Of a stretch of DNA of 64,000 nt, positions 3,296 to 51,821 are shown piece after piece (within the stretch, counting starts at the first letter, position 1; each line of letters begins with the position of its first letter). The stretch covers positions 64,001 through 128,000 of the forward strand of contig PLCF01000085.1 of the NCBI GenBank assembly GCA_003135555.1, written 5' to 3'. This DNA is from Vulcanimicrobiota bacterium. Lineage in GTDB: Bacteria; Vulcanimicrobiota; Vulcanimicrobiia; Vulcanimicrobiales; Vulcanimicrobiaceae. The notes under the pieces are model-generated. The model was not told the origin of the DNA. It did no database searches and saw only the letters and a list, made by a program, of their open reading frames with translations. The position numbers and the translations under genes are program-made.

Positions 3296-4387
3296 CTACT
3301 CGCGGTGTCCCAACGGGGGCGTGCCGTTGACGAAGGCGGGCGGGTTTCGGTCATCGAGCTCTGCATAGATCGAAAAGGCGCCGCTGCCGAGCCCGGTTAC
3401 GTCGCGATCCGTCGCGTACGTTCCCCCCGGTGCGACATCATCGGGACGCACGGTCAGGACCTGCAGTGCGCCGCCGGCGAGGGTGACGACCTGCGGCGTC
3501 GCGTTCACCAGCTTGACGCTTACCGGCGTGCGAATTCCGGCCAGGCCCCCGATCGCGATATGCACGGAGACGCGTTCGCCGCGCATCAAGCTGGTTTTCG
3601 GCGCGGAAAGCTTCAACGAAATGACGCTGCACGGTGCAATGACGGCGAGGCGGTTTTCGGTTAGCCGGTACTCGCTCGGGCCGGAGACATTCGGTGCCGG
3701 TGCGACGGCGAGTTTGCGCGGCGATTCGGCGAGCATCTCCGCGGGCTGTCCACCAATCGTCAACGTCGTGTTTGCGAGATCGCCATCGAAGGGACCGTGG
3801 ATCGCAAGCGGCTGCCCTGCCACGACGACCTCCGGGAAGCGGAAGTCTTGCGGCTGCGGCGACGTTCCGGGCCGAGGCTGTTGCGCGTGTGCGGAGAGCG
3901 TGACGCGGCCAACGGCCTTGCCCCGCGCATCCCGAAGGATGAGCTGCATGGTCGATGCGGTGTCCGGCACGCTGAACGTGAGGACAACCAGCGGCGTGGC
4001 TAACGCGCGATGCATGCCGCCGTTCGCCTTCCTCAGTCCGGCGTCGACCACGTACCCTTGCAGCACGGAAGCATTGGCACTGCGTTCGGCATCGGTGCGA
4101 CCGGCCGGTTCGGCAATGACCGTGCCGCTGATGGTGTCGCCGGCGGCCATGTCGTCCGGAAGGTTGACGCGAATGGTCCCCGCCGGGACGCTGAACGGCG
4201 TCGAAGTCATACCCGGCGCGGCCCCCGCCGGGCGCCCCGCGGGCGGCCCGCTGCTCTGCGCGGCGCCGCTACCGGCGACCGCAACGCTGCCGGCGATGCA
4301 CGAAATCAGAAAAACGGCGAGCCAACGCTGCGACAAGAGCGTGCCTCCCAACGATCGTCCGCGCCCAGTGTACTCCTCGGTCGCCAC
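3296..4387 (-). CDS. secreted hypothetical protein, beta-rich (Ig/IPT-like segments)
   Basis: 363-aa ORF with signal-like hydrophobic stretch; [10 protein letters not shown]...[15 protein letters not shown] resembles an IPT/TIG repeat. Confidence 0.6.
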
Positions 4388-4489
4388 CCGGCAAAGACTA
4401 CAGGCTGGACGACGTGTACTTGGGCGTCTCTACCGCGGGGAATTCACGAGCAGGGCGTGGCGCCGGTAGCAGAAAAGCGACCGACCACG

Positions 4490-5245
4490 ATGGTCACGCA
4501 CGCCCTCTCCCGCCGTCTGGCCGCCGAGTTTTTCGGGACGTTCTGGCTCGTGCTGGGCGGATGCGGAAGCGCCGTCCTCGCGGCGGGCTTCCCGAAGCTG
4601 GGCATCGGCTTCGCGGGCGTCGCGTTGGCGTTCGGACTCACGGTGCTGACCGGCGCGTATGCCTTCGGGCCGATCTCGGGGGCCCATTTCAATCCGGCGG
4701 TTACGGTCGGGCTGTGGATCGCTCGCCGCATCCCTTCGCGCGACGTGCCGCCCTACGTCGTGGTCCAGGTGATCGGCGCGATCGTCGCGGCGGGAGTCCT
4801 GTACGCGATCGCGGCCGGCGCACCGGGCTTCAGCACGGCGGGCGGCTTCGCCGCCAACGGTTACGGCGATCACTCCCCGGGGATGTACTCGCTCGTCGCG
4901 TGCATCGTCTGCGAACTCGTCATGACGTTCATGTTCTTGATGGTCATCCTGGGGGCGACCGATGCGCGCGCGCCCGGCGGTTTCGCGCCGCTCGCGATCG
5001 GGCTCGCGCTCACGCTGATCCACTTGATCAGCATTCCGGTCACCAACACGTCGGTGAACCCCGCGCGCAGCACCGGGCCGGCACTCTTCGTCGGCGGTTG
5101 GGCGATCGAGCAACTGTGGATGTTCTGGCTCGTCCCGCTCGTCGGAGCCGCGCTCGCCGGCGCGATCTATCCGCGCGTGTTCGGCGCGCCGGGAATCGCC
5201 CCCGAAAAGCCGGCGCTCGGCGCCGACGGCAGCCCGGCGGGCTGA
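4490..5245 (+). CDS. aqpZ: aquaporin Z
   Basis: [45 protein letters not shown] (two NPA motifs). Confidence 0.95.
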
Positions 5246-43208: not shown

Positions 43209-43796
43209 ATGGACGGACTGGAATGGACGGCCAGCGCGATGCGTGCGGCTCGGGCGCAGCTCGACCTCGCCACGCACAACCTGGCCAACGCCTCGACCGA
43301 CGGTTACCGTAAGGCTGTCGCCCACGTCGCGCTGACCGCGCGCGGCCTCGCGGTCGCGTCGCAGGTCACCGACGAACAGGGCGCGGTCCGCACCACCGGG
43401 CGGCGCTTCGATCTCACGCTGCTCGGCGCGGGTGCGTTCCGGGTCGGCCAGGGCTCGACGCGCGAGGGCGCGTTCACCCGCAGTCGCGACGGCTTGCTGA
43501 CCGACGACCGCGGGCGCGCTTTGCACGGCGCGTGCGGCGCGTTGCGCGTCTCCGCGGAAGCGACGATCGCCGCCGACGGCAGCGTGCTCGACCACGGCCG
43601 CGTCGTCGACCGCATCCCGCTCCCGGCGGGAACGCACGTGCTCCCCGGCGCGCTCGAGTCGAGCACTGTCAACCCGATCGATGAGACGCTGGCGATTCTG
43701 GGCGCGCAGCGCGCCTTCGAGACGGCGCAGCGGACCTTGCTCGCGATCGATGCGACCCGCGAAAAGTCGGCCAACGACGTGGCGCGCGTCCAATGA
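43209..43796 (+). CDS. flagellar basal-body rod protein (FlgF-like, short)
   Basis: THNLANASTDGY, TGRRFDLTL, TREGAF, GALESSTVN, QRAFE. Confidence 0.85.
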   Translation: MDGLEWTASAMRAARAQLDLATHNLANASTDGYRKAVAHVALTARGLAVASQVTDEQGAVRTTGRRFDLTLLGAGAFRVGQGSTREGAFTRSRDGLLTDDRGRALHGACGALRVSAEATIAADGSVLDHGRVVDRIPLPAGTHVLPGALESSTVNPIDETLAILGAQRAFETAQRTLLAIDATREKSANDVARVQ

Positions 43797-43873
43797 ACCG
43801 CGCCATGTTCGCGGCGGCGAGCGGGATGGCGGCGCAGCAGACGCAGCTCGAGATCGTCGCCGACAACCTCGCC
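43703..43873 (+). repeat. intact copy of the 41095-41266 repeat
   Basis: Spans the ATGA overlap of the two rod genes. Confidence 0.9.
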
Positions 43874-44518
43874 AATGCCGACGTCGCCGGTTTCAAGGGT
43901 GCCAGCGCGACCTTCGCCGACGTGCGCGCCGGCGCGCTGGGGTTGGGGACGACCAGCGTCGGCAAGCACGCCGTGTTCGCGCAAGGAAAGCTCGTGCGCA
44001 GCGGCGGCCCGTTCGATCTGGCGATCGACGGACCGGGCTTCTTCGCTGTGGAGCGCCACGGCGCGCGCGGTTACACCCGCAACGGCGAGTTCGCTCGCGA
44101 CGCCGACGGAACGCTGCGCAATAGTGCCGGCTGGGCGCTCTCGGGCGTGCGCATCCCCGCCGGCGCGCTGGCTGCGCGGGTCGAGCGCGACGGGCGCGTC
44201 GTGATCGACACCGCGGCTGCGAAGGGACGCACCGTTGCGCATTTGCGCCTAGCGGCCTTTGCTTCGCCTGAGGCATTGCGCCCGCTCGGTGCGACGCTGT
44301 TCGCGGCGACCGAGGGATCGGGACGCGCGCGCCTGTTCGCGCCCGGCGCGCACGATGGTCCGTCGATCGCGTTCGGGATGCTCGAACGCTCCAACGTCTC
44401 GATCATCGAGGCGATGATGCAGATCCTCGGCGCGCAGCGCGCGTACGAGGCGAACGCCAAAGGGGTGCAAGCCGCCGATGAGATGCTGCGGATCGCCAAC
44501 AACCTCCACCGCGGCTGA
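43793..44518 (+). CDS. flgG: flagellar basal-body rod protein FlgG-like
   Basis: AASGMAAQQTQLEIVADNLANAD.AGFK, DLAIDGPGFF, YTRNGEF, LERSNVS, QRAYEANAK. Confidence 0.88.
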   Translation: MNRAMFAAASGMAAQQTQLEIVADNLANADVAGFKGASATFADVRAGALGLGTTSVGKHAVFAQGKLVRSGGPFDLAIDGPGFFAVERHGARGYTRNGEFARDADGTLRNSAGWALSGVRIPAGALAARVERDGRVVIDTAAAKGRTVAHLRLAAFASPEALRPLGATLFAATEGSGRARLFAPGAHDGPSIAFGMLERSNVSIIEAMMQILGAQRAYEANAKGVQAADEMLRIANNLHRG

Positions 44519-44663
44519 GCCCGCGGCCATCCGCGCGCAGGATGTGGTCAACGCGGTCCTGTTCCGCGAGATTCTCAAGCCGCTGGCGCAGGGGCTCGGC
44601 CCGCTTGCGGAGGTCGCGCTGGGGGCGGTCGCGGACGAGCTGTTCGTGCGCCCGCGCCGATGA
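44478..44663 (+). CDS. small protein, possibly a minimal FlgJ-like rod-binding domain
   Basis: QDVVNAVLFREILKPL; lies between flgG and the sigma factor with ATGA overlap. Confidence 0.45.
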   Translation: MRCCGSPTTSTAAEPAAIRAQDVVNAVLFREILKPLAQGLGPLAEVALGAVADELFVRPRR

Positions 44664-45352
44664 GCGTCGACACACGTGAGGCGCGCATTCGGGAGCTGCT
44701 GCCGCTGGTGCGGCAGGTGGCGCGGCGCGTCCGCCGGATGGTTCCCGGCGCCGAGGTCGACGAGCTCGTCGGCGACGGTAACGTCGGACTGATCCGCGCC
44801 GTCGACAGCTTCGATCCGGCTCGCGGCGTTCCGCTCGAGCAGTACGCGCGCCGCGTGATCCTGGGTGCCATGCTCAACGGCGTGCGCCGGATGGATCCGG
44901 TCGCGGAGCGAATGCGCCGCACGATCCGCATCGCCGAGCGAGCGCGCTACGCGCTCGCGCATCGGCTGGGGACGCTTCCGACGTACAACGCGATGGAAGC
45001 GCAGGTGCCGGCGCTCGCGCGGGCGCGCACCGAGGCGCATCGCCGCGTCCCGCTCTCGCTCGACGCGCCGTTGCCGATCGGCGAGCGGCTCGCGCCCGAT
45101 GCGAGCGGTGACCCGCAAGCGGTCGTCGCCGCAGCGGTCGAGCGCGAACGGTTGCGCGGCGCGATCGCGGCGCTGCCGCAGCGCCAGCGCCACATCGTGC
45201 TCGCGCACTATTTCTGCGAGCGGCCGCTGCGCGAGCTGGTGGCGCCGCTCCACGTCTCGCCGCAGCGCGTCTCGCAGTTGCACCTGCTCGCGGTCGCGCG
45301 GCTGCGCGCTGCACTGACGGATGTCACGCTGCGCGCGAGCTCGGGCCCGTGA
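44660..45352 (+). CDS. sigma-70 family sigma factor, FliA/WhiG-like
   Basis: LPLVRQVARR, GLIRAVDSFDPARG, GAMLNGVRRMD, LSLDAP, VSPQRVSQLH. Confidence 0.85.
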   Translation: MSVDTREARIRELLPLVRQVARRVRRMVPGAEVDELVGDGNVGLIRAVDSFDPARGVPLEQYARRVILGAMLNGVRRMDPVAERMRRTIRIAERARYALAHRLGTLPTYNAMEAQVPALARARTEAHRRVPLSLDAPLPIGERLAPDASGDPQAVVAAAVERERLRGAIAALPQRQRHIVLAHYFCERPLRELVAPLHVSPQRVSQLHLLAVARLRAALTDVTLRASSGP

Positions 45353-45648
45353 AGGACGCCGCCGCCCCCGGTCCCCCGCGCGAGCCGTTGCTCGCGGCGG
45401 CAACCCCGGCCGTCCTCACCGCCCCGTTGGGGCCGTATGCGGACGTCGAGCCGGCGTCGTTGCCGCGCGACCACCCCGCCTGGCCACGCGACGTGCTCGC
45501 GGTCTCGGCGCGCGTGCGCGCCGTCATTGCGCAGCTGCGTCCGGTCGTCGTGCGCGTGCTGTCGTTTTGGGACCACGCCGTCCGCGGCGTCACCGTCGGC
45601 GCCCGGCGCCTCGAGATCGACCCGAGCGGCTGCTATCGCCTGCGTTAA
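45349..45648 (+). CDS. hypothetical protein
   Basis: 99-aa ORF with GTGA overlap to the sigma factor gene. Confidence 0.55.
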   Translation: MKDAAAPGPPREPLLAAATPAVLTAPLGPYADVEPASLPRDHPAWPRDVLAVSARVRAVIAQLRPVVVRVLSFWDHAVRGVTVGARRLEIDPSGCYRLR

Positions 45649-45702
45649 AGTCCGCTTCCCAAGCGAGGGCTGATATGGGCTAATCCCGACTGTTTTGAGG
45701 CA

Positions 45703-45720
45703 GTGGCTCATTTGCGCCAC
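45703..45720. promoter_or_regulatory. imperfect 18-bp palindrome, candidate operator
   Basis: GTGGCTCA-TT-TGCGCCAC, 21 nt upstream of the peptide ATG. Confidence 0.4.
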
Positions 45721-45741
45721 AAATCCGTTGGGAGATTCACC

Positions 45742-45879
45742 ATGACCACCATCCTGCTGGCTGCCGCCATCGTGGCGGGCCTGCTCTTGGGCGCCCCCGC
45801 GACCGGCGCCAACTCGGCGGCGACGAACACCCCAGCCTCGAGCAGCGATGCTCTTTCCGGAAACGGGCCTCCGGGATAG
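45742..45879 (+). CDS. 45-aa secreted pro-peptide, candidate signalling peptide precursor
   Basis: GGAG RBS; MTTILLAAAIVAGLLLGAPATGA-NSAATNTPASSSDALSGNGPPG*; followed by terminator. Confidence 0.75.
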   Translation: MTTILLAAAIVAGLLLGAPATGANSAATNTPASSSDALSGNGPPG

Positions 45880-45892
45880 CCTGTTCTAGGCA

Positions 45893-45926
45893 GGAGGAGG
45901 CGCCCGTGGTGGCGCCTCCTCTCTTT
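45893..45926 (+). terminator. intrinsic terminator between peptide and regulator genes
   Basis: GGAGGAGGCGCC-cgtggt-GGCGCCTCCTCT then CTTT. Confidence 0.7.
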
Positions 45927-45933
45927 GGTCACC

Positions 45934-47490
45934 ATGCCCCGAGCTATTCGAGCCGAGCCGAAGCTGGAGCACGCCGTCACGGCGTTCGAGCAAGGCCGTT
46001 ATGAAGAGGCCCGAGAGGTCGCGTCCCGATTAGCGGCGCGTCCAGGCGCGGTCGCGCTCGATGCGACGTTGCTAGCGGCGCGCGTCGACCTACGGCTGGG
46101 TGACGTCGCGGCGGTGATCGAGCGGCTCGAACCGCTGGCTCGCCGCTTGCCGCCCGACGTGACGGCGCAGACGTTGCTCGGTATCGCATTGTTCCGGCAG
46201 GGTGAGGAGTCGAGGGGTGCGCTTATGATCGAAAACGCGCATGCGGGCGCGCGCGATGCCGTGGGGCGATCCGAGGCCGCTTACTACCGCGCCTGGGCCG
46301 CCTACGCGCAGCGCCGGCTCGACGACGCCGAACGCTGGATCGCCGAATCGCTCGACGACGCGCAGGGCGTCGTGTACGCACGCGGGCTCGCGCTGAGCGC
46401 GTGGGTGGTCGAGGCGCGTGGTGACTATCCCGGCGCGGCCCGCGCATTTCGGCTCGCGCTGGCCGCACTGCGCAGCGGCACCGAACGCGACGACGAGCTC
46501 GTCGCGCGCATCCTGCACATGCTTGCGGTGTTCGCAGCCGAGCTTCCCGACGCGTCGCTCGCGGCGTACTTTCGGACCCAGCAGCACGGGTTCGCGTGGC
46601 CGCCCAGCCGGGTCGACGACGCCTTTAACGCGCAGCTGCACTCGGGTTTGGCCTTCGTCAACGACGGCGACGCCGACGCCGCATTCGATGCGTTCGACGC
46701 GGCCGAAGGCGTCGCGGCGGAGCGCTCCGTGCTCGCCGCGCAGGCGCGGCTGGAGACGGCCGAGCTGTTTCGCGTGCTGGGCGAAGCGACCGCAGCGCGC
46801 CGCGCGATGCGTGCGGCGTCGCAGATGTTGCGCGCCGTCGCCTGGAACGAGGCCGGCATCGCGGAACACATGGGGCTGCTCGAGGCGACCTGCGTCGCGG
46901 CGCGCTTGGATCCGATGACGGCGTCGGAGTGGCTCGTTCGCTACGCGGCGCTCCCCAAGAACGATGTGAGTTGGCATGCGCTCACGGGCGACATGCGGGT
47001 CGCGGCGACCGAGCTGCACGCGCGGGGGATCGTCGAAGCCGCTTTGGGCCGCAAGAACGGCGTGGCGCGGCTGCATGAAGCATTCGCGCTGTGGCAGCGG
47101 CTCGGATACCGCCGGCGCGCCGCCTATGCCGCCGCCGATCTGGCCGCCGCCGGAGACACCGCGAGCGGGGATCGGATTGCCTCGCTGCTGGAAAAAGCGC
47201 CGCATCATCCGCTGCTCGCGCAGCGCCACGGCGGGGCCTCCGGCCTGCCGCACTCCGCGTCGGCCGCGCCGCGCGCGAACGCCTCGGCGGCGGAACGAAA
47301 GGTTCTCGAGGCGCTATGCGCGGGCTGGTCGGTTCGTCAGATGGCGCAGGAATGGGACCGCAGCGAGTTCACGATCCGTAACCACCTCAAACGCTTGTTC
47401 GCGAAGTACGGTGTGCGCAGCTCCGCGGCGCTGGTGGCCAAGGCGATGAGCGGCGGCGCCGCGGCACCGCCGCTGGAGCGCGTGCCCTAG
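45934..47490 (+). CDS. TPR-like repeat regulator with C-terminal LuxR HTH
   Basis: Helical TPR-like repeats (AFEQGRYEEA, LLGIALFRQG, ARGDYPGAARAF); SAAERKVLEALCAGWSVRQMAQEWDRSEFTIRNHLKRLFAKYGVRS; no Walker A or receiver domain. Confidence 0.88.
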   Translation: MPRAIRAEPKLEHAVTAFEQGRYEEAREVASRLAARPGAVALDATLLAARVDLRLGDVAAVIERLEPLARRLPPDVTAQTLLGIALFRQGEESRGALMIENAHAGARDAVGRSEAAYYRAWAAYAQRRLDDAERWIAESLDDAQGVVYARGLALSAWVVEARGDYPGAARAFRLALAALRSGTERDDELVARILHMLAVFAAELPDASLAAYFRTQQHGFAWPPSRVDDAFNAQLHSGLAFVNDGDADAAFDAFDAAEGVAAERSVLAAQARLETAELFRVLGEATAARRAMRAASQMLRAVAWNEAGIAEHMGLLEATCVAARLDPMTASEWLVRYAALPKNDVSWHALTGDMRVAATELHARGIVEAALGRKNGVARLHEAFALWQRLGYRRRAAYAAADLAAAGDTASGDRIASLLEKAPHHPLLAQRHGGASGLPHSASAAPRANASAAERKVLEALCAGWSVRQMAQEWDRSEFTIRNHLKRLFAKYGVRSSAALVAKAMSGGAAAPPLERVP

Positions 47491-48317: not shown

Positions 48318-49876
48318 GGCCGCGCGTCCTGTGCGTGTGGCGGCATGCCGGGCACGAGCAAGTTGGTCCCGGTCATCTCGTGCGGCACCGCCAGGCCGAG
48401 CAGTGGTAACAGCGTGGGGGCGAGGTCGCCCAGCTTCCCTGCGGCGCCCAACGTGCCCAATGGTTGCGCGCAGATCAACACCAGCGGCACGGGATTGGTC
48501 GTGTGCGCGGTGAGCGGTTTGCTGTCGGCATCGAGCTTTTCCTCAGCGTTGCCGTGGTCCGACGTGAGCACCAGGATCCCGCCCGCCTTGATCACGGCCT
48601 GCTCCAGGCGGCCCAATGCGACGTCGAGCGTCTCGAGCGCGGAGATCGTGGCGTCCCAGACGCCGGTGTGCCCGACCATGTCGGCGTTGGCGTAGTTCAT
48701 GACGATCACGTCGTGGCGGTGGTGCGCGACGTCTTCGACCGCCGCCGTGGTGATGTCGGATGCCGACATCTCCGGCGCGAGGTCGTACGTCGCGACGCTG
48801 CGGTTCGAAGGGATCAAGATGCGGTCTTCGCCCGGGAACACGTCCTCGCGGCCGCCGTTGAAAAAATAGGTCACGTGCGCGTACTTCTCGGTTTCCGCGA
48901 GCCGCAGCTGCGTCAGCCCCGCGTCGGAGACGATCTCGCCGAAGACGTGGTACTGCGGCCGCGGTCCGAACAGCACCGGGTTGGGAAAGTTCTCCTCGTA
49001 ACGCGTCATGGTTGCGAACACGAGGTCGGCGTAGCGGCGCGCCGGGAAGTGGTCGAAGGCCGGATCGCTGAACGCCAGGGTGAGCTGGCGTGCGCGGTCC
49101 GGGCGGTAGTTGAAGAAGATGCACGCGTCGCCGTCCCGCACCGAGCGCGCGTCGCCGACGATCGTGGGCACCACGAACTCGTCGGTCTCGCCGCGTGCGT
49201 ACGCCGCCGCCAGCGCCTCGCGCCACGTTGCAAAGCGATGCGGCGATTCGTCACCGGCGAGCGCATCGTAGGCCTTGCGCGTGCGCTCCCAGCGCTTGTC
49301 GCGATCCATCGCGTAGTAGCGCCCGCTCAGCGTCGCGATCGCGTCGCCGCGGCCGTGCTGGGTCAACCGGCGCTCGAGCCGCTCGAGGTATGCTTGCGCG
49401 GAGCTGGGCGGGGTGTCGCGGCCGTCCAGGAACGCATCGATCGCCAGCCTGACGCCGGCACCGCACGCCGCGTCGACGAGCGCTTCGACGTGATCGAGCG
49501 AGCTGTGGACCTTCCCGTCCGAGACCAGACCCATCAGGTGCAGCGTCCCGCCCGTCTTGCCGACGTGCTCCAGACACGCGTGCAGCGTCGGGTTCGCCGC
49601 GAACCTGCCGCCGGCGATCTCCTCGTCGATCACCACGACGCCTTGCGGAACGACCCGTCCGCTACCGATGTTGATGTGGCCGACCTCGCTGTTGCCCATC
49701 ACCCCCGCGGGGAGTCCGACCGCCTCGCCGCTGGCCTCGAGCAGCGTGTTCGGATAGCTGGCCAAGATGCGGTTCCAGTTCGGCAGGTCGGCGGCGAGGA
49801 TCGCGTTGCCGTGCACGGTGGTCGTTGTTCCCCAGCCGTCGAGGATCGCCAAGACGAACGGCGGGCGCCCTTTCAC
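48314..49876 (-). CDS. gpmI: 2,3-bisphosphoglycerate-independent phosphoglycerate mutase
   Basis: [49 protein letters not shown]. Confidence 0.97.
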
Positions 49877-50643
49877 GCTGCAACGCCTTTGCGCGCGCCG
49901 TCGAGCAGCGCCGCGAACGACGCCGGCTCGAGGCTGGCACCCCCGACGAGCCCGCCGTCGATGTTGGGTTGCGCAACGAACGCCGCCACGTTCTCGGGCC
50001 TGACGCTCCCGCCGTACAGCACGCGCACCTGCGCAAGCCCGGGGACGGCGGTGCGGATCTCGCCCATGATCTCGTCGGCCTCCTCGGGGGTATCGGCGAT
50101 CCCGGTCCCGATCGCCCAGATCGGCTCGTAGGCCACGACGCAGCGCGCGACGTCGTCGCGCGGCATGCCCTCGAAGGCGGCGCGCACTTGCGCGACGACT
50201 TTATCGCGCGCACCTCCGGCCGCGTGTTCCTGCGCGGTCTCGCCGACGGCGACGATCGGCGTGATGCCGTATGCGAGTGCCGCGCGCGCCTTCTCGTTGA
50301 CGCGATAGTCGAGCTCACCGAAGAGATGCCGCCGCTCGGAGTGCCCGATGACGACCCACGTCACGCCGCACTCGACGAGCATCGGCGGCGCGATCTCGCC
50401 GGTGAACGCGCCTTCCTCGGCCCAGCCCACGTTTTGCGCTCCGAGACCGATCCCCGACCCCGCGAGCAGCTCGCCCGCCGCACACAGCGCGGTGAAGGGC
50501 GGACAGATCACCGCATCCACCTCGCCCAGCGGGAGGTCGAGCGCGCGCAGCTGCTCGATAAAGGCGCGCGTCTGCGCGATCGTCTTGTGCATCTTCCAGT
50601 TGCCCGCGATAAGCGGTTTGCGTGGGGCTTGCAACGAGGTCAC
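49873..50643 (-). CDS. tpiA: triose-phosphate isomerase
   Basis: [42 protein letters not shown]. Confidence 0.97.
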
Positions 50644-51821
50644 CGTTCCAGTGCCGCGATACCGGGGAGGGTCTTGCCTTCGAGGAACTCCAGCGTGGCG
50701 CCGCCGCCGGTCGAGACGTGCGTCATCGCATCGGCGAAACCCAACAGGTGCGCTGCGGCGGCGGCATCGCCGCCCCCGACCACGCTGAACGCACCGCGGC
50801 GGGTCGCCTCGGCGATCGCCGCTCCCACCACGCGCGTCCCCTCGCGGTAGGGCGCCTTCTCGTAGACGCCCATCGGGCCGTTGAAGACGATCGTCTTGGC
50901 GCCGCGCAGTACCTCCGCATACGCCCGGGCGGTCTGCGGGCCGATGTCGAGGATCATCGCCGCGCCGACGGCGTCCAGCGCGACCGTGCGCGCCGTGTCG
51001 TCGGCGTCGAAGGCATCGGCGACGACCGCATCGGTGGGAAGGTGGAGCGCGACGCCCTGGGCGACCGACATCGCGATGATCCGTTGCGCCGGGGTGAGGT
51101 CGGGATCGCGCAGCGACGCGCCGACCTCGATGCCTTGCGCGGCGAGAAATGTATTGGCCATCCCGCCGCCGATCACGAACGCATCGACTTTCGCTACGAG
51201 GTGCTCGAACACGCCGACCTTGTCGACGACTTTGGCACCGCCGATCGCGCATACGAACGGACGCGCCGGCGCGTCGACGAGGCGCGCGAGTGCCGCCAGC
51301 TCGGCTTCCATCAAGAACCCCGCGTATGCCGGGAGCATGGCGGCCACGCCGGCCGTCGACGCGTGCGCGCGGTGGGCCGTGCCGAACGCGTCGTTGACGT
51401 AGAGGTCTCCCGAGCGCGCCAGTTCGCGGGAGAAGCCGGGATCGTTGGCCTCTTCCTCGGCATGGAAGCGCACGTTCTCGAACACGGCAAAACCGCCGTC
51501 GGGGAGGCTGCGCGACGCGGCGACCGCTGCGTCGCCCACGCAATCCTCGACGAAACGGACCGGCGTTGCGAGCAGCTCGGCGAGCCGCGCGGCGATCGGG
51601 CGCAGCGAGTACGCCGGATCGGGCCCGCCGTCGGGGCGGCCCAAGTGGGACAGGATCACCGTCTTTGCGCCCTGCTCGTGCAGCCACCGTAGCGTCGGCA
51701 ACGCGGCGGTGATGCGGGTCTCGTCGGCGATCGCGCCGGCCTTCATCGGCACGTTGAGGTCCTCGCGCAAGAGCACGCGCCGGCCGCGCACCTCGGCCTC
51801 CCGCAGCGTCTTAAAGCGCAT
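50640..51821 (-). CDS. pgk: phosphoglycerate kinase
   Basis: [42 protein letters not shown]. Confidence 0.97.

Follow-up and report, generated by a model that had tools for sequence, protein, structure and literature searches.

At the locus described here a small open reading frame (sORF) is followed, 54 nt past its stop codon, by the ATG (45934) of a regulator gene on the same (plus) strand. Positions refer to the window, the whole stretch of 64,000 nucleotides that was analysed, which belongs to a metagenome-assembled genome of the Eremiobacterota (Vulcanimicrobiota), a little-known and mostly uncultured phylum from soil and peat. The likely non-Firmicute host of the original prediction is thus confirmed. 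The genome has one Omp85 gene, on the basis of which the phylum is probably diderm, and contains at least 11 full-length SBP_bac_5 genes of the importer type.

Genes, palindrome and hairpin at the locus

The sORF (45742..45879, plus strand) has 45 codons and a stop, its translation has 45 residues and its GC3 is 0.82. The Shine-Dalgarno site GGGAG (45730..45734) lies 7 nt ahead of the ATG, and similar purine runs occupy the equivalent position in related sORFs. Residues 1–23 (45742..45810) form a hydrophobic, signal-peptide-like segment that ends in small residues; its n-region is devoid of lysine and arginine. Such n-regions, which are unusual for Sec signals, were seen in 39/39 peptides of a first set that includes one from the unpublished genome G032. 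Residues 40–45 (45859..45876) are a glycine/proline tail, defined by its conservation in orthologues and its contacts in a modelled complex. Reading frame, ribosome-binding site, hydrophobic N-terminus and tail had all been predicted and all were found in place; the hydrophobic N-terminus suggests that the product is exported. No protein family was found for this sORF in Pfam or NCBIfam, nor for three related sORFs in NCBIfam. On exact look-up in the protein collection the 45-residue product and one relative were absent, and a third was present without a name. In Rfam, the region 45000–46500 gave only a sub-threshold match to SECIS_2 on the opposite strand, no RNA run containing the stretch came up, and next to none of its words occurred in metatranscriptomes (three runs of one study).

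The regulator (45934..47490, plus strand) has 518 residues and consists, according to Pfam, a PDB profile search and an AF2 model (pLDDT 90), of a TPR-like superhelix and a C-terminal LuxR/GerE-type helix-turn-helix (HTH). The sensor domain, residues 11–433 (45964..47232), comprises about eleven helical hairpins as judged from the AF2 model and VIA-align; it is joined by a disordered linker (residues 433–447) to the HTH at residues 451–506 (47284..47451), which was delimited by Pfam, PDB profile matches and the model. Pfam detects GerE (PF00196) at residues 451–502 (3.7e-7) and weak TPR_19/TPR_16 matches at the N-terminus, and also lists HTH_38. The PDB profile matches of the HTH are DevR, GerE, NarL and FixJ (1.8e-9 to 3e-8), and the NCBIfam MalT model matched the HTH alone (E 0.025). 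No signal peptide, no receiver domain and, in Pfam and NCBIfam, no ATPase were found; by its sequence, the protein is cytoplasmic in type. Pfam and the AF2 model agree with the architecture anticipated for this protein, TPR-like helices and a C-terminal LuxR HTH with neither ATPase nor receiver domain.

The palindrome announced upstream of the sORF was verified at 45703..45720 (no strand assigned). It has 18 nt in an 8-2-8 arrangement with one mismatch and sits 39 nt ahead of the ATG of the sORF. Nowhere else in the genome are at least 15 of 16 consensus positions matched (0.58 expected). In orthologues a similar palindrome is present at −39 to −45, and 30/38 sORFs have one at −62 to −30 of the ATG, compared with 334/1200 random anchors. 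Its arms vary by clade, in step with the recognition helix. From these patterns the palindrome is the probable operator of a LuxR-type HTH dimer. The alternative is a hairpin in the 5′-UTR, and compensatory changes in the arms fit an RNA stem equally well. The centre of the palindrome is only ~30 nt from the ATG, a distance less suited to a class II activator site than to an operator or a 5′-UTR hairpin. In a search of the loci for a second copy of the box, only two weak look-alikes with four mismatches were seen (2/30; L018 and L056), neither ahead of the regulator. The genome-wide consensus search gave one further site matching 14/16 positions (11.75 expected); this site falls within a 552-aa frame and was not kept as a regulon candidate. 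Neither the loci nor the genome thus yielded a second box that would point to a regulon.

Between the two genes lies a hairpin with a 12-bp stem and a 6-nt loop (45893..45922, plus strand). The 61-nt stretch folds with −31.5 kcal/mol (z −3.63; 0/200 shuffles equal), and both the sequence and the position of the stem are kept in 6/6 orthologous loci. The stem had been taken for a terminator belonging to the sORF. It is real and conserved, but it lacks the U-tract of a canonical terminator, and a consensus scan of 45300–46100 found neither terminator-like nor sigma-70-like sites; possibly, the hairpin is a partial terminator or attenuator. In the window's clade it ends 3–12 nt ahead of the regulator start, for which no separate Shine-Dalgarno site is obvious; a run of this type sits in the 5′ arm of the hairpin.

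Recurrence and co-inheritance of sORF and regulator

The flanks of homologous regulators were scanned, as suggested along with the original prediction, for signal-like sORFs with the Gly/Pro motif, here defined by a hydrophobic N-terminus and 1–7 copies of a Gly-Gly-Pro unit within 500 bp of the regulator. They were present at 59/97 loci from 17 genus codes where ~2.2 were expected, so that the refuting outcome named beforehand, homologous regulators without such neighbours, did not occur, although these counts overstate the number of independent observations, since related sequences are not independent. The expectation derives from the 82 frames that pass a lax filter in the 3.57-Mb window genome, which corresponds to 2.2 in the 94.9 kb scanned, and the enrichment at the regulator flanks is ~27-fold. 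The outer flanks hold 8 qualifying frames in 177 kb, 4 of them being extra family members. At 38/97 loci these criteria gave no sORF. Among them are loci truncated by a contig end and loci whose variant motifs came to light under laxer settings; others may truly be without one.

Spurious frames are common in GC-rich genomes, as the 82 frames illustrate, and the sORF might be a chance ORF without function beside an ordinary LuxR-family regulator. We give this explanation practically no credence. It is contradicted by the enrichment and also by a strict control across the genome. The last four residues of the tail are invariant in 6/6 orthologues, with synonymous differences in the codons, and the same four residues plus stop end 8 reading frames in a six-frame translation of the whole 3.57-Mb genome. 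A strongly hydrophobic segment is present in only 2 of these 8, and both adjoin the only 2 full-length regulator copies of the genome. By this control (2/2) the sORF is more than a chance frame. A peptide look-alike elsewhere in the genome (C8:95055) proved to be a chance frame with no fitting ORF. The conservation of Shine-Dalgarno site, palindrome and hairpin likewise speaks against chance, and so do the codons of the repeats. The precursors contain 1–7 near-identical units with variable spacers between them, and the units within one precursor differ by 281 synonymous versus 42 non-synonymous pairwise codon differences (L088, 60 vs 0; L103, 40 vs 0; L104, 39 vs 0). This synonymous excess indicates that the sORFs are translated and under selection.

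These units also alter the view of the signal. A glycine/proline tail was indeed found, but the motif is not only C-terminal; it is a heptamer or octamer centred on Gly-Gly-Pro that is often repeated, and in most paralogues it lies internally and is followed by further residues. In the genera g13 and g17 the repeats are preceded by lipobox signal peptides whose n-region is charged, and the products are lipoproteins of 60–150 residues.

The original prediction had placed the peptide gene first. This holds for 40 of 60 sORFs, which are upstream on the same strand, but the other 20 are downstream and convergent; neither of the two remaining orientations occurs. The orientation bears on a further explanation, namely that the sORF is an arrest leader acting in cis like SecM, VemP or MifM. 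The ribosome would stall on Pro-Pro-Gly before the stop unless the translocon were pulling on the signal sequence, and would thereby remodel the hairpin 13 nt downstream and set the translation of the regulator. Pro-Pro-Gly is a stall-prone motif. The window's clade resembles these leaders in having an upstream small ORF with a signal-like N-terminus, a proline-rich end (Pro-Pro-Gly and stop) and a hairpin before the next gene. The cis position is found in the window and for the 40 upstream sORFs, but a convergent sORF, as in a third of the family, allows no cis action on the regulator, and in most paralogues the repeated motif is not at the end. Moreover, stalling at the stop would put the ribosome over the Shine-Dalgarno-like run in the 5′ arm of the hairpin and would not free it. 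Arrest as the general function is therefore very improbable in our view; it could be an added layer in the window's clade alone.

Peptide tails track the regulator clades, and the co-variation of motif and receptor that had been proposed as a check was thus observed. In a regulator tree of 31 sequences the arrangement of the tails needs 1 change, compared with a mean of 10.5 after shuffling (0/500 as low; SH-aLRT of the branch, 75). Along this tree peptide tails, palindrome arms and the HTH recognition helix change together, as would be expected of co-inherited parts. Up to 23 regulator matches occur in one genome of the window's family, and each copy of the module combines the constant Gly-Gly-Pro core with variable residues of its own; palindrome arms and recognition helix are likewise particular to each copy. 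This pattern fits many orthogonal channels; cross-talk is a question, given the core that all paralogues have in common.

The sensor domain as a candidate peptide receptor

With VIA-align the best structural match of the regulator is domain III of MalT (1hz4_A), to which the sensor looks most similar in the model: residues 67–428 align with Z 20.7 (rmsd 6.1, 341 aligned). APC6, another APC/C TPR subunit (8a3t_J) and LGN are tied with it within 1 Z unit. Receptors of the RRNPP type follow, with scores that indicate the fold class only, as helical repeats have a high background: Rap phi105 with peptide (8rte_B; Z 19.0, rmsd 5.0, 308 aligned), RapI (4i1a_B; Z 18.0), AimR (5zvv_A; Z 17.5) and NprR (4gpk_A; Z 15.4). 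A Foldseek search of the PDB yielded only TPR matches of a generic kind; Rap phi3T stood at ranks 15, 17 and 47.

A model of the receptor together with the tail, another check proposed beforehand, placed the tail in a conserved groove of the TPR domain with a score of 0.61 (runs 0.64, 0.37 and 0.61), whereas the best of three controls reached 0.01. As a rough calibration, in which own alignments were used, the mark of 0.61 is reached by 116/157 solved complexes and by 2/215 mismatched pairs. At least 24% of contacts are common to the runs, and a pLDDT of 39–40 for the peptide means that its own fold is uncertain. Peptide residues 40–45 contact groove residues that include L53, R88, R150 and D186, each at least 90% conserved; the predicted lining consists of L53, R54, R88, Y118, W121, Y124, R150, L154, W157, D186, R192 and H195. 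Conservation at the interface exceeds that of randomly drawn position sets, of which 76/10000 were as high. The last six residues of the peptide are thus predicted to bind the conserved TPR groove, and the tail, as the part modelled in contact with the receptor, is the likely core of the mature signal.

Alternatively, the sORF could encode a target and not a ligand, namely a peptide or small lipoprotein that is exported to serve at the surface, in the matrix, as an antimicrobial or otherwise, and whose gene is the main target of a regulator that senses some other protein or a small molecule with its TPR domain. A conserved palindrome before the sORF shows at most a target, the binding of peptide and TPR domain is a prediction of the model, and the lipoproteins of g13 and g17 could remain in the envelope. 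We nevertheless consider a pure target unlikely. The model puts the conserved tail where conservation of the groove is highest, controls scoring far lower, and short, strongly selected units between freely varying spacers are typical of released peptides and not of structural proteins. Co-duplication, one to one and in dozens of paralogues, is what is expected of ligand-receptor pairs. In addition, genes for export, immunity or modification did not recur near the pair among 98 flanking frames of 50 loci, and these longest flanking frames, which were chosen by length and may include wrong frames, share no common family, and thus no conserved third gene, beyond local synteny. The only synteny seen is ADH with Metallophos_2 in one clade. 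A FliA-like sigma operon near the window's pair had been suspected to be a coincidence, and in keeping with this a flagellar or FliA context is absent from 7 related loci (tblastn).

It is also conceivable that the hydrophobic N-terminus is a membrane anchor and that the tail or the repeats, on the cytoplasmic side, hold the regulator as an anti-regulator until a signal triggers its release. With n-regions that lack lysine and arginine, the positive-inside rule does not fix the topology; a tethered tail would suit the complex model just as well, and several repeats could bind several molecules of the regulator. On the other hand, the hydrophobic stretches are short (~13–17 residues) and followed by glycine, proline, serine and small residues, as in cleaved signals; the lipoprotein signals in g13 and g17 place the repeats outside the cytoplasm; and the tails have acidic and few basic residues. 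A tether of this kind appears improbable to us.

A model of peptide signalling and its relatives

With moderate confidence we favour a signalling pair that is RRNPP-like without being a member of that group: an exported, processed and re-imported peptide would control a TPR-LuxR receptor in the cytoplasm, and this receptor would bind the palindrome before the peptide gene. The quorum-sensing pair originally proposed, analogous to RRNPP but with TPR first and LuxR last, is supported by recurrence, co-variation and the complex model; secretion, processing, import, binding and output are inferred. According to this model the sORF is translated into a pro-peptide of 45 residues whose hydrophobic N-terminus would take it across the inner membrane via Sec, where signal peptidase would cleave it. 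Extracytoplasmic proteases may then free a short peptide ending in the Gly/Pro tail. The peptide would build up outside and be returned by an oligopeptide ABC importer, for which the genome has many binding proteins. In the cytoplasm it is predicted to dock in the concave groove of the TPR domain, which would alter how the LuxR-type HTH dimer occupies the palindrome that precedes the peptide gene by 39 nt. The result would be an autoregulatory loop of either sign, possibly with control of further targets. In the family to which the window genome belongs the module has been duplicated and has diversified.

The likeness to RRNPP(A) systems (Rap-Phr, NprR-NprX, PlcR-PapR, PrgX, Rgg-SHP, AimR-AimP) is considerable. 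A cytoplasmic TPR-type receptor adjoins the gene of a pro-peptide, presumably exported here as well; a palindromic site lies before the peptide gene; many diversified paralogues occur per genome; and the fold compares with Rap, AimR and NprR at Z 15.4–19.0. The active part is at or near the C-terminus, and some precursors have tandem copies, as described for pheromones in RRNPPA pro-peptides in a passage of PMC11343458. Passages of PMC10075063 and PMC9765709 describe RRNPP systems as Firmicutes systems, and peptide signalling via cytoplasmic TPR receptors is treated there as belonging to Firmicutes and their mobile elements. Their hosts are Bacillota and phages, whereas the window's host is probably from a diderm phylum. 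In contrast to an N-terminal XRE-type HTH or the N-terminal helical effector domain of the Rap type, the only HTH of the window's regulator is the C-terminal GerE. No sequence homology to any RRNPP family or chain was detected in Pfam, NCBIfam or the PDB profile search, which gave only GerE and generic TPR, and the peptides differ in their constant Gly-Gly-Pro core and in that some precursors are lipoproteins.

The arrangement of a TPR-like superhelical sensor and a LuxR/GerE HTH recurs in the C-terminal half of MalT and other LAL (STAND) regulators. The window's regulator differs from these in having no N-terminal P-loop NTPase (NOD) and no arm domain, its repeats beginning at residue 11; the ligand of MalT is a sugar and not a gene-encoded peptide. 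With LuxR-type AHL receptors and LuxR solos it shares the C-terminal GerE HTH and a palindromic box of the lux-box or tra-box kind. Those palindromes have 18–22 nt. Unlike AHL receptors it has no autoinducer-binding domain (PF03472, no Pfam match); its sensor is a 420-residue TPR superhelix and its partner gene encodes a peptide, not a synthase.

No earlier description of such a pair was found in the literature, and the recurrence points to a form of peptide signalling between cells that has not been described before. We lean, if only slightly, towards an unrecognised class of peptide pheromones in one family of Eremiobacterota, convergent with RRNPP and built on a MalT-like TPR with a C-terminal LuxR HTH, in which the more than 20 regulator copies that one genome can have would serve as orthogonal channels, with up to seven Gly-Gly-Pro signal copies and operators specific to each receptor. 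If this is true, peptide quorum sensing with cytoplasmic receptors extends beyond monoderm Firmicutes and phages, and the logic of TPR-receptor peptide signalling arose more than once, in structures that are analogous and not homologous. It would also offer a large natural set of peptide/receptor/operator triplets for the study of specificity evolution and for orthogonal genetic switches, and a first entry point to the social behaviour of Eremiobacterota.

The regulator family counts 668 cluster representatives at E ≤ 1e-30 in the library searched. Clusters with the TPR-GerE arrangement also occur in Actinomycetota and Acidobacteriota. A metagenome scan with the regulator returned one weak, HTH-only locus, and a search of genome contigs with the single regulator protein returned no loci. 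The same kind of search with a 17-row alignment of orthologues found 5 loci, four in Eremiobacteraeota/Vulcanimicrobiota MAGs and one, an HTH-only match, in a Sorangium MAG.

A putative pro-peptide gene and the neighbouring regulator

The sequence features behind the original prediction, a small putatively secreted pro-peptide encoded beside a TPR-like/LuxR regulator at 45703-47490, were borne out on reading the sequence. The small open reading frame (sORF; 45742-45879, + strand) has 45 codons and a GGGAG site 7 nt upstream. The N-terminal third of its product is hydrophobic, the middle is rich in Ser, Thr and Ala, and a tail of glycine and proline runs up to the stop. An 18-nt palindrome (45703-45720) precedes it, and a 12-bp stem (45893-45922), previously taken for a terminator, separates it from the regulator. 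The stem itself is well supported (the 61-nt stretch that contains it folds with −31.5 kcal/mol, z −3.63, equalled by 0 of 200 shuffles); the terminator call did not hold, since the stem has no U-tract and a consensus scan of 45300-46100 called neither a terminator nor a sigma-70 promoter. A hairpin of near-identical stem lies between the two genes in all six loci of the window's clade and ends 3-12 nt before the regulator start.

The regulator (45934-47490, + strand) has 518 residues, in which Pfam found GerE (451-502; 3.7e-7), weak TPR models at the N-terminus and no further family. In an AlphaFold model built from a 52-sequence alignment (pLDDT 90, pTM 0.80), residues 11-433 form about 11 helical hairpins and residues 452-506 a four-helix HTH, with a disordered linker (433-447) between them, matching the TPR-like helices and C-terminal LuxR HTH that had been read from the sequence. 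Upstream, at 43209-45648 (+), Pfam identified two flagellar rod genes of FlgF/FlgG type and, at 44660-45352, a FliA-like sigma factor; a 99-aa frame without a Pfam family (45349-45648, +) comes after them. This flagellar neighbourhood was not found in seven related loci, in line with the guess that the adjacency to a FliA-like sigma operon may be coincidental. Downstream, the opposite strand encodes a nucleoside phosphorylase and a phosphoglycerate mutase (Pfam) as well as a long frame of 604 aa (49873-51687, −), whose triosephosphate isomerase domain is confined to residues 358-596 (2.8e-80). The N-terminal 350 residues of this frame had no Pfam match at the threshold applied; a fusion with phosphoglycerate kinase or an over-long start may be the explanation.

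Recurrence and inheritance of the pair

The window's contig (C58) belongs to an assembly of 3.57 Mb in 98 contigs (84% complete, 67.9% G+C). The named relatives of the regulator are from metagenome-assembled genomes of Candidatus Eremiobacteraeota (Vulcanimicrobiota), the kind of non-Firmicute host that had been expected. With the alignment as query, 178 of the 301 genomes sampled from the phylum had the regulator family, in a tally that includes seven unpublished genomes: 173 of 206 in the window's family, 1 of 3 and 3 of 22 in two others and none of those sampled from the 18 remaining families. The family is large and lineage-specific, with up to 23 matches in one genome and 21 in another, and 668 clusters of a representative library matched at E ≤ 1e-30. 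At locus L032 (G025:C89:26660-29723) two family regulators stand head to tail, 116 bp apart. Clusters of TPR plus GerE proteins of about 540 aa and similar features are, in a protein atlas, commonest in Actinomycetota and Acidobacteriota.

A six-frame scan of the window's genome gave eight frames that end in the four-residue tail of the sORF plus stop. Two of these have a strongly hydrophobic segment, and both lie beside the only two full-length regulator copies of the genome, that of the window and its paralogue on contig C90 (33% identity). The wider tally comprised 97 regulator loci from 17 genus codes, with one locus of the unpublished genome G032 left out, and a filter for sORFs of 22-160 codons, within 500 bp, whose hydrophobic N-terminus is followed by one or more Gly-Gly-Pro-type motifs. 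A qualifying sORF was present at 59 of the 97 loci. The identical filter passed 82 frames in the 3.57-Mb genome of the window, a density that predicts about 2.2 for the 94.9 kb of searched flanks; the outer flanks of the same loci contained 8 such frames in 177 kb, 4 of which are further family members. Homologous regulators thus indeed carry adjacent signal-like Gly/Pro sORFs, so that the observation is confirmed and the idea of peptide signalling supported by the flank survey that had been proposed as a check. No sORF passed the filter at 38 loci. Laxer inspection recovered variants at about nine of them (L046, L051, L058, L090, L095, L098, L103, L104 and, more doubtfully, L114) and contig ends cut at least two of the 38; the remainder may truly be devoid of an sORF. 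At L065 (G018:C2:607853-612361; oriented 91-1256) three tandem family pro-peptide genes lie upstream of a single regulator, and L055 has a second pro-peptide gene further out.

As for orientation, 40 of 60 sORFs are upstream on the regulator strand and 20 downstream and convergent, with none in any other arrangement. A cis-acting arrest leader would leave this convergent third unexplained and is highly improbable.

A tree was built for 31 regulators for which a peptide had been detected. It gives full support to the window's clade, and the clades are mirrored by the peptide tails; the peptide motif co-varies with the receptor clade, a pattern that the proposed check had asked for. A single switch between the two gene arrangements suffices (shuffled mean 10.5; 0 of 500 shuffles as low), but the branch concerned has an SH-aLRT of 75. 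Since relatives are not independent, the tree demonstrates joint inheritance of the pair rather than the number of its origins. At 50 loci the longest neighbouring frames (98, picked by length, which may miss genes) had no further family in common except local synteny in one clade, and no export, modification or immunity gene travelled with the pair. A phage-integrase-family gene adjoins one pair (L049, oriented 3831-4562), which raises the possibility that some copies are carried by mobile DNA.

A repeated unit under selection and its probable export

The precursors contain 1-7 copies of a 7- or 8-residue unit, in which a constant Gly-Gly-Pro core comes after two or three variable positions, in many cases an acidic residue and then an aliphatic one; the spacers vary freely. 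Seven identical units occur in one precursor, and six in another. Units are alike inside a single precursor, and between paralogues the variable residues differ. For a codon comparison eight precursors were chosen, of which seven gave at least four units; pairwise differences between their units were synonymous in 281 cases versus 42 non-synonymous, and four precursors had no residue-changing difference at all. In the window's clade (sORF GC3 0.72-0.86) 6 of 6 orthologues end in the same four residues, yet none of the four codons is constant among them. The mostly synonymous changes and the invariant tail argue that the ORFs are translated and that the repeated unit is under selection. In the downstream sORFs of L018, L023 and L024 two conserved cysteines stand a few residues before the core, which hints at a disulfide or other modification. 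The 25-36-codon sORFs of L089, L091 and L093 (genera g56 and g36), where a hydrophobic stretch is directly followed by the Gly-Gly-Pro end, bring to mind the Rgg systems with their short hydrophobic peptides.

At about 13-17 residues the hydrophobic stretch of the precursors is short, and Gly/Pro/Ser and small residues at its end make it resemble cleaved signal peptides. That the product is instead a membrane-tethered partner of the regulator appears improbable. Unusually, Lys and Arg are absent from the n-region throughout the first set of peptides (39 of 39, one from G032); longer starts that add basic residues were rejected as translated Shine-Dalgarno sites. In two other genera of the family (g13, g17) the repeats follow signal peptides of the classical lipoprotein type, which have a lipobox cysteine and a charged n-region, so that the repeats are outside the cytoplasm there; the window's peptide is presumably exported, too. 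These precursors (L098, L100, L103, L104 and L105 in g13; L112 and L113 in g17) have 60-150 aa, with five or six repeats in L098, L103, L104 and L105 and one extra residue before the core proline in L103-L105. Re-import could rely on family-5 solute-binding proteins, of the oligopeptide-permease kind, for which the window's genome has no fewer than 11 full-length genes; its single Omp85 homologue points to an outer membrane. One of the solute-binding protein genes (G000:C90:3148-4221) precedes the C90 paralogue of the regulator by 3.4 kb.

Putative receptor and operator, and known systems

We consider it fairly probable that the pro-peptide is exported and processed outside, and that the processed peptide would be re-imported to control the cytoplasmic TPR-LuxR receptor, which would act on the palindrome in front of the peptide gene; all steps beyond translation and selection of the peptide are inferred or predicted. 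Complex prediction for residues 1-440 of the regulator (its TPR part, with alignment) and the C-terminal 30 residues of the pro-peptide (six-orthologue alignment) scored 0.61 (runs 0.64, 0.37 and 0.61), compared with 0.01 for the best of three controls; of 157 solved complexes 116 came up to the score mark, as did 2 of 215 mismatched pairs, figures that are approximate since author-supplied alignments were used. Contact agreement between runs was at least 24% and partner pLDDT at least 39. The confident contacts place the last six peptide residues in the concave TPR groove, at predicted regulator positions 53-54, 84, 88, 118, 121, 124, 150, 153-154, 157, 186, 188-189, 192, 195-196, 228-229 and 232. 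Across 52 paralogues these are more conserved than random sets (76 of 10000 as high), and four of the 25 positions conserved to at least 90% are among them (L53, R88, R150, D186). The model supports, rather than demonstrates, binding of the peptide to the groove; from contacts and conservation, the constant core is predicted to meet a constant part of the groove, so that specificity would be set by the residues that vary in the two partners.

The main rival, in which the peptide gene is merely a target of the regulator, seems unlikely. Most loci of the window's clade have a palindrome about 40 nt before the sORF start, and family-wide one begins 62-30 nt before the ATG in 30 of 38 sORFs (334 of 1200 random anchors by the identical lax rule). 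A length of 18-22 nt is fitting for palindromes bound by dimeric LuxR/NarL-type domains. The arms vary between regulator clades yet stay symmetric, and the predicted recognition helix varies in step; as a 5′ untranslated stem would give the same compensatory pattern, the palindrome is a likely rather than a demonstrated operator. The window's box is the only site of the genome with at least 15 of 16 consensus positions (0.58 expected), and no regulon emerged from this genome search.

Searches of the open literature on Eremiobacterota/Vulcanimicrobiota signalling, RRNPP systems outside Firmicutes and LuxR-TPR peptide pheromones did not turn up this pairing. By analogy, RRNPP(A) systems would be functionally closest: common to both are a cytoplasmic TPR receptor, an adjacent pro-peptide gene with an active C-terminal part, a palindrome before that gene and, in some precursors, tandem pheromone copies (for RRNPP(A), PMC11343458). 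Two features set the window's pair apart from them: the HTH is a C-terminal GerE domain and not of the N-terminal XRE type, and Pfam, NCBIfam and PDB profile searches revealed no sequence homology to RRNPP families. The best structural alignment of the sensor was to MalT domain III (Z 20.7, rmsd 6.1, 341 aligned), with three eukaryotic TPR proteins within one Z unit, followed by Rap with peptide (19.0), RapI (18.0), AimR (17.5 and 17.3) and NprR (15.4), but helical repeats score high by default and these values therefore rank fold class only. Compared with MalT/LAL regulators, the window's protein corresponds to their C-terminal half without the ATPase; with AHL-type LuxR receptors it has the HTH as sole likeness.
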